From assembly GCA_023819255.1 (NCBI GenBank), contig JAMWBU010000001.1, forward strand, positions 16,348 to 80,347: a DNA stretch of 64,000 bases, read 5' to 3'. Each line of letters starts with the position of its first letter. Position 1 is the stretch's first letter. Of this stretch, positions 7,244 to 41,572 are shown piece by piece. Below the pieces are notes generated by a model, which was not told the DNA's origin, did no database searches, and saw only the letters and a program-made list of their open reading frames with translations. Made by a program: the position numbers and the translations under genes. Source of the DNA: Candidatus Omnitrophota bacterium (lineage in GTDB: Bacteria; Ratteibacteria; UBA8468; B48-G9; DTJG01).

Positions 7244-7935
7244 AAATGAATACAGAAAAAATTGTTGTTTTGATACCGGCGCACAATGAAGAGAAAGCTA
7301 TTGGCAAACTTATAAGCCAGGTTAAAAAGATTATACCGTTAGTTTATGTTGTTGACGATGGCTCTACGGATAATACGGCAATAATGGCGGAACAAAATGG
7401 CGCGATCGTGATCAGGCATCAACAATGCATGGGCAAAGGCGCGGCATTGAAAACAGGATTTAATCGCATTCAAAACCCTCCATTTGAGGTTGTTATCACG
7501 ATGGATGGAGATGGGCAACATTCTGTTTCAGACCTTCCGGTTTTTCTTGATGCGATTGGAAAAAAGAAAAAGGCCGGGATAGTTGTGGGGAAGAGGACAA
7601 TTAAAGGGACAAATATGCCTTTCATCAGAAGGTTAACAAATCTTTCAATGTCGATTCTAATCTCCATTCTTGCTTTGCAGTGGATACCTGATTCCCAGAA
7701 TGGTTTCAGGGCTATAAGAACAAATGTATTGAAAGGAATGCCGCTTGTAAGCTGCCACTTTGAGACTGAGACAGAAATACTTTTACGGGCTTCGTGGAAA
7801 GGAGTGAAAATCGCTTCTGTTCCTGTTAGCACGATATACAATAATGAAAAGAGCAAGATAAAACCAACAAAAGATACAATAAACTTTTTCTCAATGCTGT
7901 TAAAACTTTGCTTTTTTGTATGGAAGAAAAAATAG
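7240..7935 (+). CDS. GT2-family glycosyltransferase, polyprenyl-phosphate sugar transferase-like (DPM1/GtrB/ArnC-like)
   Basis: IVVLIPAHNEEKAIGKLI…VYVVDDGSTDNT…ITMDGDGQH DXD-type motifs, plus a C-terminal hydrophobic segment. Confidence 0.75.
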   Translation: MKMNTEKIVVLIPAHNEEKAIGKLISQVKKIIPLVYVVDDGSTDNTAIMAEQNGAIVIRHQQCMGKGAALKTGFNRIQNPPFEVVITMDGDGQHSVSDLPVFLDAIGKKKKAGIVVGKRTIKGTNMPFIRRLTNLSMSILISILALQWIPDSQNGFRAIRTNVLKGMPLVSCHFETETEILLRASWKGVKIASVPVSTIYNNEKSKIKPTKDTINFFSMLLKLCFFVWKKK

Positions 7936-8567
7936 ATTTTGAGAGATTACGAAAAGAAATGGTCAGGCATCAGATACAGGGCAGGGGAATTACTAATGAG
8001 AATGTACTGACAGCTTTTCTCAAGATACCGCGGGAGGAATTTGTTCCGCAGGAGATGAAAAATTTTGCCTATGATGATTGTCCGCTTCCTATTGGTTCTG
8101 GTCAAACAATCAGTCAGCCATATATGGTGGCAATTATGACTGAACTGGCAGAGCCTGAAAAAGGTGATAAAGTACTTGAAATTGGAACCGGTTCAGGTTA
8201 TCAAACATCGCTTCTTTGTGAAATGGGTTGTGTGGTTTACTCAATGGAAAGGATTCCAGAACTTGCAGAAAGAGCAAAACAAACACTGGAAAAACTGGGA
8301 TATAAACCCGTAATTATTATTGGTGATGGCACGCGGGGTTGTCAGGAAAATTCGCCGTATAAAATAATTATTGTGACCGCGGGTGCTCCAGAAATACCAA
8401 AATCGCTTGTCGAACAACTTGATGAAAACGGCAGAATCATTATTCCTGTTGGAGATATGTTTTCGCAGGAACTGATTCGTGGAATAAAAAGAAAGGGAAA
8501 ACTTATTCGGGAATTTCATGGTGGTTGTCAGTTTGTGCCTTTAAAGGGTAAGGAAGGCTGGAAGTAA
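7920..8567 (+). CDS. pcm: Protein-L-isoaspartate O-methyltransferase
   Basis: GSGQTISQPYMVAIMTELAEP…VLEIGTGSGYQTSLL SAM-binding motifs. The ORF opens at 7908; MEEK at 7920 is the more likely start. Confidence 0.85.
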   Translation: MEEKIDFERLRKEMVRHQIQGRGITNENVLTAFLKIPREEFVPQEMKNFAYDDCPLPIGSGQTISQPYMVAIMTELAEPEKGDKVLEIGTGSGYQTSLLCEMGCVVYSMERIPELAERAKQTLEKLGYKPVIIIGDGTRGCQENSPYKIIIVTAGAPEIPKSLVEQLDENGRIIIPVGDMFSQELIRGIKRKGKLIREFHGGCQFVPLKGKEGWK

Positions 8568-37704: not shown

Positions 37705-38436
37705 TCATTTTTTCAGTGCATTACGCTTTAAGGTGAACCGCATTAAAATTAACGTAATCTCATAAAGAAGAATCATGATTCCGGATACTATCAGCATCGT
37801 AAAGCCATCTATTGTAGGAGTAATAAGAGCTGCAATGACGAATATGACGACATATGCAATCCTTCTCATTTTTTTGAGCCAGTCAATTTCAATGATTCTA
37901 GAGATTCCCATAAAGAACATGACCACTGGAATCTGGAAAATAAGTCCCAGAATAAGGTTCATCCAGATTATAAAAGATAAATACTGGTTTATTGTAATCA
38001 TTGGTTCCATGATGCCGGCTCCAAATCCAAAAAGGATTTTAAGGCCTGCTGGAACAATTGCAAGGTGACTGAGGCATATTCCAGAATAAAAAAGGATAAC
38101 TCCTATAAAAAGGCACAGACCAAGCATTTTTCCTTGTTGTCTGGTAAGTGCTGGTTTTACAAATACATATGTTTGATAAAGTATAAATGGATAGCTGAGT
38201 AATAACCCTGAAAAAAGCACTATTTTTATAACAGAAAGAAATGGTTCTACTGGAGAAATGAAAACAGGGTTTTTTTGAAGGTTTTGAAGTGGGTTGACAA
38301 TGTACTTAAGTATATGTTTATTAAAGACATAGGATAAAATACAAGCAAGAGAAAACCATATCAGGACAAGAATAATCCTTTTTCTGAGCTCTTCAAGGTG
38401 ATCAAGAAATGTTCCATTCTGGGCAGAATTTTTCAT
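37705..38436 (-). CDS. tatC: Twin-arginine translocase subunit TatC
   Basis: FLDHLEELRKRIIL… N-terminus and a six-TM layout. 243 aa. Confidence 0.85.
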   Translation of the reverse strand: MKNSAQNGTFLDHLEELRKRIILVLIWFSLACILSYVFNKHILKYIVNPLQNLQKNPVFISPVEPFLSVIKIVLFSGLLLSYPFILYQTYVFVKPALTRQQGKMLGLCLFIGVILFYSGICLSHLAIVPAGLKILFGFGAGIMEPMITINQYLSFIIWMNLILGLIFQIPVVMFFMGISRIIEIDWLKKMRRIAYVVIFVIAALITPTIDGFTMLIVSGIMILLYEITLILMRFTLKRNALKK

Positions 38437-38624
38437 TCCTCATTCTTGTTATCTTTTTCTTTTTCGTTCTCTACATTCTTTTCCACCTCTTTGAGTCCTT
38501 TTCTAAATTCTCCAATCGCTTTGCCGAAGGACCTGCCGATCTCTGGCAATCTTTTTGCTCCAAAAAGAAGCAGGACTATCAGTCCTATTAAAATCAGTTC
38601 CTGAGCACCTAAGTTCATATTCAC
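38433..38624 (-). CDS. tatA: Twin-arginine translocase subunit TatA/E
   Basis: LGAQELILIGLIVLLLFGAKRLPEIGRSFGKAIGEFRKG: TM helix, hinge FG and amphipathic helix. Confidence 0.85.
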   Translation of the reverse strand: MNMNLGAQELILIGLIVLLLFGAKRLPEIGRSFGKAIGEFRKGLKEVEKNVENEKEKDNKNEE

Positions 38625-38639
38625 CTCCTGATTGTTATG

Positions 38640-39227
38640 CTAAGCATAGTTTCCATTATAGATATAGACCCTTTTTTCGCCTTTGTTTGTAACCCTTATG
38701 GCTGCCTCTTTTGTTGTGACGGGACAATTTTCTTCACAGAGACCACAGCCAGTGCATATTTCAGGATTGACAATGGGCCTACCCTGTCCATCAAGATATA
38801 TTGCATGTACAGGACAGAACTCAAGGCAGACCAGGCACTCCTTTTGATGTGTCCATACCAGACATTGGTTTTCATAAATCCTGGCGGTTCCGATTTTTAT
38901 TGTTTCCTGGTTAACATTTCTGATTGCTCCTGTCGGACAAACTTTGCCGCAGCTCTGACACAGAATACAGCCCTGTTCTCTTGGAATTATTTCAGGAGTT
39001 GTCCCGTTTTCAAAAGATCTTTCCAGACGAACCTGCTTCAAACATTTTGCCGGGCATGCTCTTATGCACTGTCCGCACCTGACACAGAGTTTTGAAAAGA
39101 ATTTTTCTTCAACTGAGCCAGGAGGTCTGATAAGGAAGTTTTTTCTAAATCTCTTTATTAATGTACCAGGGAGTAAAATGGCAATGGCAACTGCTGTAAG
39201 AGATACCAAAAATTCCTTTCTATTCAC
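38640..39227 (-). CDS. Polyferredoxin with four [4Fe-4S] motifs and a Tat-like RK signal (NapG/MauM-like)
   Basis: Four CxxCxxCxxxCP motifs (CVRCGQCIRACP, CILCQSCGKVCP, CLVCLEFCP, CTGCGLCEENCP). N-terminus NRKEFLVSLTAVAIAILLPG resembles a Tat signal with RK instead of RR. Confidence 0.7.
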   Translation of the reverse strand: MNRKEFLVSLTAVAIAILLPGTLIKRFRKNFLIRPPGSVEEKFFSKLCVRCGQCIRACPAKCLKQVRLERSFENGTTPEIIPREQGCILCQSCGKVCPTGAIRNVNQETIKIGTARIYENQCLVWTHQKECLVCLEFCPVHAIYLDGQGRPIVNPEICTGCGLCEENCPVTTKEAAIRVTNKGEKRVYIYNGNYA

Positions 39228-39855
39228 CCTTTTTCCTTTTTTTCAAAATATTTCCTGTTAATGTGTAAAATCTTCCGAGCGGACAAACGTAGTTGCACCA
39301 TAACCGCGGAAAAAGCACACTGCTGAGTACTATTATGGACAAAAAAACAACCCATAATTTCACCCCTGTCATCGCCTGACCGAGGATAACAAAAGGATCA
39401 AAGATAAATCCCGTGTAAGGAAATGAAAAAATAAGCGTGCTAAGAGAAGATGCGAGAACAAAAATAAGAATCCAGAGGCTTGTTTTTCTTAATATTTTTG
39501 GCGAGGTAAACGAAACCTTCCATAATCTTCTGAAGACAAGCAAATTAAGGTAATCAATGCTTCCGCCGAGCGGACACAACCAGAAGCAAAAAAAGTTACC
39601 CGCAATAATAATTAATAAAATCATAATAAATCCAGGCAACAGAAAAATAAAGAATTTACCTGAATTGATAAGAGTTTCCAGCGCGAGTAAGCCATTAATT
39701 TTGAAGTACATAGTGACAGGAATTTTTTCAGGTAAAGGGAAAACAGCGGTCTTGTGCAAAAGAAAGAAGAAAAAGAAAATGCTTGTAAGTTGAACCAATC
39801 TTCTAAAGATCAACCTTTTTTTCAGTCCGTTATGTAAAAAGAATTTTTCAAACAT
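39220..39855 (-). CDS. Integral membrane protein with two CX3CP motifs (NapH/MauN/CcoG-type membrane module, lacking the C-terminal ferredoxin domain)
   Basis: Four predicted TM segments. CFWLCPLGG and CNYVCPLGRF motifs. Confidence 0.55.
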   Translation of the reverse strand: MFEKFFLHNGLKKRLIFRRLVQLTSIFFFFFLLHKTAVFPLPEKIPVTMYFKINGLLALETLINSGKFFIFLLPGFIMILLIIIAGNFFCFWLCPLGGSIDYLNLLVFRRLWKVSFTSPKILRKTSLWILIFVLASSLSTLIFSFPYTGFIFDPFVILGQAMTGVKLWVVFLSIIVLSSVLFPRLWCNYVCPLGRFYTLTGNILKKRKKGE

Positions 39856-40768
39856 AGGTTAATTTGACTTTTGAAAGGTCTGCGATGCCAAGACCCATCT
39901 TCTCTGCTATCTGCAGATGCCTGACTTCTGATGGATTTACTCCAAGCAGTGTCGCTCCATAGGCATCAAGGGCAACAAAATCCAGTCCTCCGCATACAGT
40001 TCTGGTTTCTTTTACTTCGCCTGGTCCCTGCGGACCTCTTGTAAGGAGGATTCTTGTGGCGTCAACGATCGTAAAGGCTGGCTTCAAAAAAGAAGAAATA
40101 TCAACAATACACTGATTAAGATCTGTTCTATGGAAAAACCCTCTATCCCTGACTGCTCCCATCCAGTTTTTCATTGAAATTGTTATTCTTGCCTGAGAGC
40201 CATGGACTTTTGCAACAGGAACATTTACAAGCACATCAGCATCAAGGATATCTTCAAGTATACTGGCTTCTTTGAGCACTGCGCCATTCGGAATAGACAC
40301 TGTTCTGAATTTTTCAGGAGCCCTCATTGTTCCTCCAGCATTTTCGACAGCATCCTTGATGCCTGTTGTGACAAATGTTGTTTGCCATGGGTTGCAGGTT
40401 ACATCTGTCACAATAATAGAAGAAGCACCCGCATTTCTGCACATTTTCACCAGGGCTCCGACAACTTCAGGATGGGTTGTCGCCGCTTGCTCTGGGGTCC
40501 TGTTCCATGCGATATTGGGTTTTATGACAACCTTGCTTCCCTTTTTGACGAATTTATTGATAGCGCCCATCGCTTTTACTACGCGAAATGTCATTTCTTC
40601 AGGTGAACCATTTTTTGAAATAAAAATTTCTGATGAGGATTCAGCCGCCACAGATGGAGTTTCTGAAATCCTTGTATATTTTGAGGCAATTAATCCAAGG
40701 GTCGCAACAATACCTGTTTTTAAGAATTCCTTTCTGTCCATAATGCCTCCTTTTTTGTTGAATTTCAA
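39848..40768 (-). CDS. DUF362-domain protein with a Tat-like RK signal peptide
   Basis: …VVIKPNIAWNRTPEQAATTHPEV… DUF362 core. N-terminus MDRKEFLKTGIVATLGLIAS…VAAES. The start may be the internal MDRK at 40741. Confidence 0.6.
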   Translation of the reverse strand: MKFNKKGGIMDRKEFLKTGIVATLGLIASKYTRISETPSVAAESSSEIFISKNGSPEEMTFRVVKAMGAINKFVKKGSKVVIKPNIAWNRTPEQAATTHPEVVGALVKMCRNAGASSIIVTDVTCNPWQTTFVTTGIKDAVENAGGTMRAPEKFRTVSIPNGAVLKEASILEDILDADVLVNVPVAKVHGSQARITISMKNWMGAVRDRGFFHRTDLNQCIVDISSFLKPAFTIVDATRILLTRGPQGPGEVKETRTVCGGLDFVALDAYGATLLGVNPSEVRHLQIAEKMGLGIADLSKVKLTYV

Positions 40769-41572
40769 TTACTTAGCAGAAAAAGTTTAACCTTTTTCTT
40801 AATGTCGTTATTCCCGATGTTTTGATTATAGCACCAGTCAGGTATTCCGGCAAGCGAAATCAGGATCTTAAATTTTTTACGTTTTTTCTGGCATAAGTCG
40901 AAAGAGCTTTTTTCATGGATAACGGGTTATCTGGCGCCCTGATTCTTTTTGAGTTTATTTCGGTCTTTAATTTATGTTTCACTCGATTGGAATTTTTTTG
41001 TTTGGTGTATCCATAAATTAGACTTCAATTACAGGGTCGGGTTTATTATTTTTTTTATACTGCAAGAATAAACGAAGAAATTAAGAGCGCGATGAAAATA
41101 ATCCTATTTTTTTAAGGAAAGGGTTTTATTTTTGTTGATTTTCAGGGGTACTTCATAGTGTTGGTATAGTACGATGTTGTGGCGATTCAGGAGAATGCTT
41201 TTCAGGTGGGACATTCTTCTGCATCCGCAATTCCAGTTTTGAGTGCGAATTTTTCTTGTTCTATTTCTGCAGGGAATTGTAGTGGATTTTGGAAATCAGG
41301 GTATATCTGCAGTCCCCCCCTGCCCTTTCCCGAATGCGGTAAGACGAGTAAAAAAAAGCAGATGAACTCTCAAAATCTTTTTTACCTCTGACCCCGAATA
41401 AAATTCAAAAGAATCATTTTTTCCTGGAAGCGGGTTCGAATAGGTGCCGCAATGATCTGGTCGTATTTTTCTACTATGAGATCTCTTTCAAATTTTAACG
41501 AAGTTTAAATATAGACTGCATTATGAAGTTAATATAATATTAACTTCGCAACTTCACTACTTCATAACTTAA

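Follow-up and report, generated by a model that had tools for sequence, protein, structure and literature searches.

A Tat-linked module of a DUF362 protein and NapG/NapH-like iron-sulfur proteins in Candidatus Omnitrophota, with a candidate nickel-pincer active site

The 64,000-nucleotide stretch of Candidatus Omnitrophota DNA analyzed here (the window) carries, on the minus strand, a run of five head-to-tail open reading frames (ORFs) at positions 37705-40768, with the genes proper at 37705-40741. From 5' to 3', these genes encode a protein of the DUF362 family, a small membrane protein, a polyferredoxin, and the TatA and TatC subunits of the Tat (twin-arginine translocation) machinery:

39848-40741, minus strand: DUF362 protein (PF04015), 297 amino acids (aa), with a Tat-type signal (MDRKEFLK to VAA/ES, the slash marking the cleavage site) followed by a predicted LarA-fold domain
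39220-39855, minus strand: NapH-like membrane protein (Fer4_5), 211 aa, with four hydrophobic helices and two CX3CP motifs
38640-39227, minus strand: NapG/MauM-like ferredoxin (NapG model), 195 aa, with MNRKEFL, RPPG and four [4Fe-4S] cysteine motifs
38433-38618, minus strand: tatA (TIGR01411), 61 aa, with AGGAGG upstream
37705-38436, minus strand: tatC (TIGR00945), 243 aa

The stop codon of the DUF362 gene and the ATG of the membrane protein gene overlap by 8 nucleotides (nt; ATGTTTGA), as do the stop codon of the latter and the GTG of the ferredoxin gene (GTGAATAG), both read from the sequence; tatA and tatC overlap by 4 nt (ATGA), and the AGGAGG before the ATG of tatA lies within the 21-nt gap that follows the ferredoxin gene. 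The ORFs, the family matches and this tight spacing, with three overlaps and one 21-nt gap, bear out the five named minus-strand genes of an earlier note on this DNA. For DUF362, the most likely start codon is the ATG at 40741, downstream of AAGGAGG, and not the TTG at 40768; the product of the ATG start is 100% identical to a deposited 297-aa protein (P0001) of a Candidatus Omnitrophica metagenome-assembled genome (MAG). The most likely start of tatA is the ATG at 38618. Domain searches agree with the proposed families: the DUF362 model matches at 166 bits against a cut-off of 24 (residues 71-263, profile positions 1-199 of 200), the membrane protein is NapH-like, and the products of tatA (72.1 bits against 53.9) and tatC (177.3 against 132.7) both exceed the cut-offs of their models.

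The membrane protein is matched by Fer4_5 (PF12801, 46 bits) and, below the cut-offs, by the NapH/MauN models (TIGR02163, 50.3 against 213 bits; NF007013, 48.8 against 234). Its CX3CP motifs, CFWLCP (residues 90-95, positions 39571-39588) and CNYVCP (residues 187-192, positions 39280-39297), lie at the ends of hydrophobic helices, with basic residues after each, and by the positive-inside rule the protein would have four transmembrane helices with both motifs facing the cytoplasm. The protein ends 19 residues past the second motif, and the C-terminal 2x[4Fe-4S] domain of NapH is missing, because the NapH models match at profile positions 2-189 of 255 only. For the ferredoxin, the best NCBIfam match is NapG (NF007012, 98.1 bits against a cut-off of 269), followed by the MauM/NapG model (TIGR00397, 80.1 against 178.85) and a 62-bit match to NapF. 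The protein has an RPPG motif of the NapG/NapF type at residue 34 and [4Fe-4S] cysteine motifs at residues 48, 87, 122 and 158; its N-terminus consists, in order, of MNRKEFL, a hydrophobic stretch, KRFRK and RPPG, and, because an Ala-x-Ala site is absent, the signal helix would remain uncleaved as a membrane anchor. The previous description of a four-helix protein with two CX3CP motifs and a four-cluster ferredoxin thus agrees with the located motifs and the predicted topology. The NapG/NapH identity stands only in part: NapG and NapH are the best matches, but with all curated cut-offs missed, the two iron-sulfur proteins are relatives of these families rather than members.

As had also been claimed, there is no Nap catalytic subunit: nap, nos or mau genes are found neither within 10 kb on either side of the cluster nor in the ten ORFs that, apart from these, are the largest in the window; none of the ten is a redox enzyme. 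A bona fide Nap, Nos or Mau accessory system was ruled out by the missed cut-offs together with the absent catalytic genes.

Related loci were collected in a one-genome-per-species scan, which yielded 80 loci with record titles naming about 20 phylum-level groups. ORFs were called in 86 loci and searched with iterated hidden Markov models (HMMs) of the five window proteins, and a further metagenome scan seeded with a Bacteroidetes-type DUF362 protein contributed 80 loci, for a combined total of 166. In 74 of the 86 genome loci, across about 20 phylum-level groups, the next gene 3' of a DUF362 gene with a Tat signal is NapH-like and in the same orientation, and the NapH-like protein in these 74 loci is nearly always fused to a NapG-like part in a single polypeptide of 400-600 aa; the pair of DUF362 and NapH-NapG is also present in 65 of the 80 metagenome loci. 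All-against-all clustering of neighbors in the 86 loci detected no other gene family in more than 10 loci, which identifies the DUF362-polyferredoxin pair as the unit under selection; neighbor clustering revealed no conserved third gene hinting at a substrate, and no nap, nos or mau catalytic gene is conserved near the module in the 166 loci.

In the fused homologues, a four-helix part with a pair of CX3CP motifs comes first, usually followed by two cluster motifs on the cytoplasmic side; next come SRRR and a helix of moderate hydrophobicity and, past this helix, basic residues, RPPG and four cluster motifs. The N-terminus of the window ferredoxin is the free-standing counterpart of the RR-helix-RPPG junction inside these proteins. 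Most fused homologues have the cytoplasmic ferredoxin domain; short fused forms lacking it occur in Kiritimatiellia and Lentisphaerae (PVC-type). By this comparison, the split, shortened polyferredoxin of the window is a lineage variant. All five genes, along with the wider synteny, are retained in Omnitrophota relatives down to 58% identity (loci L001, L007-L010 and L089-L091), whereas the relative at L092 has the three redox genes without tatAC, and the five-gene arrangement is limited to one Omnitrophota group. Conservation of this arrangement in related genomes thus does not extend beyond that group, the unit shared across phyla being DUF362 and NapH-NapG only.

Several loci depart from the common layout. 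In Armatimonadota-type loci, two Tat-DUF362 paralogues precede one polyferredoxin; the second paralogue is longer (about 350 aa) and lies directly before the first (L003, 4852-5910; L005, 4906-5967; also L013, L017 and L040), and the paralogue pair is preceded by ndk and a gene for a secreted protein of about 200 aa of unknown function. The commonest third neighbor, found in 7 + 17 loci of the Bacteroidota type, encodes a membrane protein of about 175 aa that belongs to no Pfam family and is divergently oriented just 5' of DUF362 (L031, 7344-7859; L104, 4916-5434; about 22 more loci). In Competibacteraceae locus L070, a gene for a Uma2-family endonuclease (7876-8475) is located between DUF362 and the polyferredoxin. 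A Chloroflexia locus (L077, 4986-8813) encodes a 1275-aa protein with a C-terminal DUF362 domain, no Tat signal and no adjacent polyferredoxin, and in two Planctomycetota loci (L062, L085), which have no polyferredoxin gene after DUF362, the R-R of the DUF362 signal is replaced by R-H (MLNRHDFLK, MMNRHNFLK).

The AlphaFold model of the DUF362 protein, obtained with a 78-sequence alignment, has a predicted local distance difference test score (pLDDT) of 91.9; a Foldseek search with this model returned 18 significant PDB matches, all of them LarA-family proteins, and the protein is predicted to have a LarA-type fold. The Pfam DUF362 model matches Lactobacillales LarA at residues 82-245 with up to 26.1 bits against the cut-off of 24, and DUF362 and the LarA N-terminal domain belong to one Pfam clan (PMC11770544). 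Direct sequence comparison of the window DUF362 protein yielded no match to Lar_N (PF09861) or LarA_C (PF21113) even at E-values up to 10, so that DUF362 is to be regarded as a structural relative of LarA and not a LarA-family member. A PDB sequence search with the protein and the 78-sequence profile gave no match either, and an HMM built from Tat-type DUF362 proteins alone did not detect LarA.

The candidate active site was located through a signal-less, cytoplasmic DUF362 protein that is encoded directly 5' of a Tat-DUF362 and polyferredoxin pair in a Proteobacteria MAG (L073, 6740-7873). The Lar_N model aligns to residues 138-188 of this protein without gaps (profile positions 144-194, E 0.0018), placing H160, K170 and H186 on H174, K184 and H200 of LarA (sequence checked against PDB 5HUQ), which in LarA are the catalytic base, the tether of the nickel-pincer nucleotide and the nickel ligand, respectively. 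In a MAFFT alignment, the triad corresponds to H180 (40202-40204), K191 (40169-40171) and H204 (40130-40132) of the window protein, and the register of the cross-match obtained with the DUF362 model is consistent with this assignment, with H174 and H180 each 92 residues past a shared anchor. Across 214 DUF362 sequences, with paralogues counted in, H180, K191 and H204 are conserved in 213-214, and they are among about 14 polar residues invariant in the family. In the L073 protein, a two-cluster ferredoxin domain is inserted right behind H186, the putative nickel ligand.

The genomic context of the module in some other bacteria points to the same cofactor. Every ORF of all loci was searched with LarB, LarC and LarE queries from a Lactiplantibacillus lar operon. 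In Competibacteraceae locus L028, the genes for DUF362, polyferredoxin, LarC, LarE and LarB follow each other on one strand, then polA; a second Competibacteraceae locus has LarC directly 3' of the polyferredoxin, and a Bacteroidetes contig has a divergent LarC gene upstream of the module. In 10 of the 80 metagenome loci, larC, usually along with larE and larB, divergently adjoins the DUF362-polyferredoxin pair (for example, LarC, LarE and LarB precede the module divergently in L094, L112 and L173), and the DUF362 proteins of these ten loci share 52-84% identity. In both L094 and L028, the NCBIfam equivalog models for LarC, LarC2, LarE and LarB all match above their cut-offs. Altogether, LarC adjoins the module in 13 of the 166 loci, compared with about 0.2 expected by chance within 10 kb by our own rough estimate, and no LarA homologue was detected in any locus with phmmer or a LarA HMM. 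Adjacency to larBCE, absence of a nearby LarA, and conserved His and Lys residues have been used as a route to a nickel-pincer enzyme outside the LarA family (PMC13524815); relatives of the module present this combination in that larC(EB) adjoin them and LarA is absent. The same study noted that hundreds of prokaryotes make the cofactor without LarA, and did not mention DUF362 (PMC13524815). The literature searched contains no functional assignment for DUF362 and no report of its pairing with the polyferredoxin or lar genes. The earlier note's view of a Tat-exported DUF362 protein of unknown function can thus be amended: the Tat signal is there, albeit with R-K, and to it are added the predicted LarA fold and the genomic link to nickel-pincer synthesis.

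The module could alternatively be a NapGH-type quinol dehydrogenase that passes electrons from the quinone pool to a periplasmic DUF362 reductase with an ordinary cofactor distinct from the nickel-pincer nucleotide. The best NCBIfam matches, NapG and NapH, speak for this, as do the use of NapH-like proteins as modular electron-entry units for several periplasmic enzymes (PMC8238504) and the absence of adjacent lar genes at most module loci. We nevertheless regard it as doubtful, given the missed Nap/Mau cut-offs and the lack of nap, nos and mau genes nearby, and it leaves the LarA fold, the invariant His/Lys/His triad and the 13 larC(EB) loci unexplained. It is improbable that DUF362 has no catalytic role and acts as an assembly factor or an electron-carrier partner of the polyferredoxin: although no substrate-related gene is conserved beside the pair and the contexts look like housekeeping, the enzyme-like fold and the set of invariant polar residues argue for catalysis, as does the adjacency of lar genes, and the position of the two-cluster insert in the cytoplasmic relatives, behind the putative nickel-ligand His, is as expected of a redox-active site.

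Both cargo signals of the window have R-K instead of the canonical R-R (MDRKEFLK in DUF362, MNRKEFL in the ferredoxin). R-K is a weakened Tat motif in E. coli assays, and NapF, which the ferredoxin matches, is a cytoplasmic protein with a vestigial signal; on these grounds the two signals might be degenerate, leaving the module in the cytoplasm or on the inner face of the membrane. We consider this very improbable, because close and distant homologues retain full Tat motifs, with an N-terminal RRxF[LI] in 86 of 95 DUF362 homologues and near variants in most others, and because the compensating Gln in TatC (see below) and the fact that the operon has kept tatAC indicate that export goes on. In the window DUF362 protein, the signal has a plausible cleavage site (VAA/ES), and the folded domain of the AlphaFold model begins at residue 38. 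Furthermore, the fused polyferredoxin is inserted by the Tat system: MBP and AmiA reporters showed in E. coli that its fifth helix depends on Tat (PMC5449189). The proposal of an uncharacterized extracytoplasmic redox module is supported by these signals and by this experiment on the fused form.

The tatAC genes lie beside the module in 9 of the 86 loci, which exceeds the approximately 1% that we roughly estimate for a random 16-kb neighborhood. In Omnitrophota they are located downstream; one Bacteroidota (L019) and one Spirochaetia (L080) locus have them upstream in the same orientation, and in Victivallaceae (L068) and Riflebacteria (L083) they are divergent; the adjacency is clade-specific yet has arisen in at least five lineages. 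Within Omnitrophota, the signal motif and TatC change together. R-K is found in all 12 DUF362 proteins at least 67% identical to that of the window, and R-R in nearly all from 63% identity down; one DUF362 protein at 50% identity (P0064) has R-K, apparently of independent origin (MERKEFLK), on a contig too short for a TatC to be seen. In four loci of the R-K clade (the window, L010, L089 and L090), the ferredoxin has R-K too, and the TatC residue that corresponds to E. coli E103 is Gln, a position occupied by Glu in five R-R Omnitrophota loci (L091, L001, L007, L008 and L009) and four loci of other phyla. In the window TatC, the Glu equivalent to E15 is encoded at 38389-38391 and the residue equivalent to E103 is Gln101 (38134-38136); the E15-equivalent Glu is constant in every TatC compared. 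The E. coli TatC sequence used for numbering was checked against PDB 9DZZ, and in an independent HMMER alignment Gln101 falls on a glutamate of Aquifex TatC. Among the 150 nearest TatC cluster representatives, this column contains Glu in 129 and Gln in 4; the nearest representative (P0241, 56% identity) has His. In a 2.4-A cryo-electron microscopy (cryo-EM) structure of E. coli TatBC with a substrate, the second Arg of the motif forms a salt bridge with E103, and the E103A variant is binding-negative (PMC13323110). Because of this salt bridge, the changed signal Arg and the changed TatC residue are direct partners (PMC13323110), and their co-variation at a known contact supports a real link between the module and tatAC: as far as the sequences show, DUF362 and the ferredoxin are cargos of the adjacent TatC. 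It further suggests that they are among very few such cargos, because a receptor change must be followed by every substrate.

A more conservative explanation is that tatAC is the general Tat system of the cell and adjoins a substrate through inherited synteny, with no dedicated relationship. The synteny of the whole neighborhood, from ppdK to pdxJ, among Omnitrophota relatives fits this, as do the three redox genes without tatAC at L092 and the absence of tat genes near the module in all 80 Bacteroidota-type metagenome loci. Conversely, tatAC adjoins the module in four more phyla in varied orders and orientations, above the chance estimate, and the TatC change is matched by both adjacent cargos, which is easiest to understand if these are the main substrates. 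The same co-variation would be expected of a general system, differing only in degree; on balance we find this explanation rather unlikely. The assertion that the module is encoded with its own Tat machinery thus gains from the co-variation of signals and TatC, and is restricted by the confinement of the five-gene set to one Omnitrophota group.

Taking these observations together, we think it reasonably probable that a redox module acting outside the cytoplasm, complete in itself, is encoded by these five genes along with the translocase that installs it, with DUF362 most probably a nickel-pincer enzyme of the LarA fold. The catalytic subunit thus probably carries this rare cofactor and is wired to an iron-sulfur chain. 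DUF362 would fold and receive its cofactor while still in the cytoplasm and then be exported by TatAC through its cleavable R-K signal, Tat being required because the nickel-pincer nucleotide would be inserted in the cytoplasm. The NapG-like four-cluster ferredoxin would leave through the same TatAC, probably remaining tethered by its uncleaved signal helix, and the short NapH-like protein would be the membrane partner, holding one cluster between its cytoplasm-facing CX3CP motifs. Electrons would travel, in either direction, between the membrane subunit, the four outer [4Fe-4S] clusters and the DUF362 active site, where the nickel-pincer nucleotide would be tethered or ligated by Lys191 and His204, with His180 as the acid/base, and hydride chemistry on a periplasmic substrate would be coupled to the one-electron iron-sulfur wire. 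LarA enzymes transiently oxidize 2-hydroxy acids, passing the hydride to the cofactor; because of this hydride chemistry, we speculate that a DUF362 enzyme that hands electrons to iron-sulfur clusters would be a net dehydrogenase or, in the reverse direction, a reductase. The observations proper are the gene structure and families, the conserved pairing, the Tat motifs and their co-variation with TatC, the predicted fold and the lar genes beside the module in relatives; from these we infer which cofactor is bound, that DUF362 touches the ferredoxin, and how the proteins are held at the membrane.

Several points weigh against the nickel-pincer assignment and this electron path. The equivalence to LarA residues comes from one sub-threshold Lar_N match (18 bits against 23.3), the mapping of H204 needs a two-residue loop shift, and the whole mapping is transitive. 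Three hhalign comparisons of DUF362 with LarA, made with thin or low-diversity LarA alignments (a larger homology search gave only LarA relatives of 73-99% identity), matched LarA only in the wrong domain, the C-terminal one, and without significance; DUF362 itself lacks this domain, which contributes the substrate-binding residues in the racemases. There is no adjacent lar gene at 153 of the 166 module loci, and none in the 64-kb window and its few recoverable flanks. The NapH-like protein has no obvious membrane-spanning cofactor for electron entry, and, to our knowledge, there is no precedent among nickel-pincer enzymes for passing electrons one by one from iron-sulfur clusters to a hydride-type cofactor. 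Finally, the change to R-K and Gln happened once, in one clade, so that the weight of the co-variation is mechanistic and not statistical.

A broader proposal, which we put forward tentatively, is that DUF362 constitutes a second large branch of nickel-pincer enzymes that exchange reducing equivalents via iron-sulfur clusters, the cytoplasmic members in cis, through the inserted ferredoxin, and the exported members in trans, through the NapG-type polyferredoxin. The exported form would be a nickel-dependent periplasmic oxidoreductase distributed across about 20 phyla, and the branch would account for many of the organisms that make the cofactor without LarA.

Comparison with known systems delineates what is distinct here. 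Like NapGH, NosGH and MauMN, the module combines a four-helix protein with two cytoplasm-facing CX3CP motifs and a Tat-exported four-cluster RPPG ferredoxin that would serve a periplasmic catalytic subunit; unlike them, it falls below the curated cut-offs, its membrane protein lacks the C-terminal two-cluster domain, its partner is DUF362, and nap, nos or mau genes are absent. In MsrPQ, two genes make up a stand-alone module: a periplasmic enzyme exported by Tat and a partner in the membrane through which electrons enter. It resembles the present module in this organization but not in its cofactors, molybdenum cofactor and haem b. Translocase genes are encoded beside their cargo in Bacillus subtilis as well (TatAdCd-PhoD and TatAyCy-EfeB), as is the case for tatAC of the window. 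We know of no description of co-variation between the signal motif and TatC for either MsrPQ or the Bacillus Tat systems. LarA racemases differ from DUF362, which is Tat-exported and always paired with iron-sulfur carriers that the racemases do not need. The dual Sec/Tat polyferredoxin (MLMS-1 Q1NSB0; PMC5449189) belongs to the same family as the window proteins, and this fusion follows DUF362 in most phyla, whereas the window form is split into two genes and has no cytoplasmic ferredoxin domain. In the description by Tooke et al. (2017), NapH and NapG are fused in it, three clusters being predicted on the inside and four on the outside; these authors assigned it no function or partner, and did not mention DUF362 (PMC5449189). 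NphT is similar in that larB, larC and larE adjoin a non-LarA gene with conserved His and Lys, and different in being an aldo-keto-reductase-type TIM barrel that is cytoplasmic, has no iron-sulfur partner and has been proven by experiment (PMC13524815).

DUF362 is accordingly a concrete candidate for a non-LarA protein that uses the nickel-pincer cofactor, and a very widespread one; it bears on the question of what uses the cofactor in the hundreds of LarA-less organisms that make it (PMC13524815). If correct, the assignment would make DUF362 the first exported nickel-pincer enzyme and the first tied to an electron-transfer chain, extending the chemistry of the cofactor beyond internal hydride shuttling. 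The pairing with DUF362 also gives a functional partner to the dual Sec/Tat polyferredoxins, a family studied for its biogenesis but with no assigned role. The R-K/Gln pair, in turn, looks like a compensation that arose naturally at the Arg-Glu contact resolved by cryo-EM, and it offers an evolutionary test of drift in Tat recognition.

The flanking genes of the cluster are of the housekeeping type (ppdK, ribF, pdxJ, hisC and trpS), with ppdK upstream and pdxJ downstream. Between ppdK and DUF362 lies an unusually long non-coding spacer (0.8 kb, 40742-41572), similar in length in the relatives, where the candidate regulatory elements of the cluster are found:

40825-40853, minus strand: candidate sigma-70-type promoter (TTGCCG, 17 nt, TG-TATAAT), about 85 nt 5' of the DUF362 start; consensus match only
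41525-41547, minus strand: perfect 11-nt inverted repeat directly after the ppdK stop codon

The candidate promoter matches the consensus at 10 of 12 positions and has an extended -10 element; in a promoter and terminator scan of the region, the number of sites did not exceed that in shuffled sequence. The inverted repeat may be the ppdK terminator, which would separate two transcription units. A leader RNA in the spacer was considered and dropped, as there is no Rfam match in the spacer and similarity among relatives is limited to about 30 nt beside the ppdK stop codon, overlapping the 11-nt palindrome.

A small gene of the nitroreductase family (TM1586_NiRdase) is present at about 31000-31500 of the window (8948-9451 in L087) and in Armatimonadota locus L005 (1222-1704), in both cases 5-10 kb from the module, which is probably a coincidence. 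Farther away, on the minus strand at 9218-23065, the window contains a set of genes resembling those of type IV pili or the type II secretion system (T2SS), including:

10351-11649, minus strand: DUF7305 protein
12460-14163, minus strand: secretin
20153-21379, minus strand: T2SSF
21383-23065, minus strand: T2SSE ATPase

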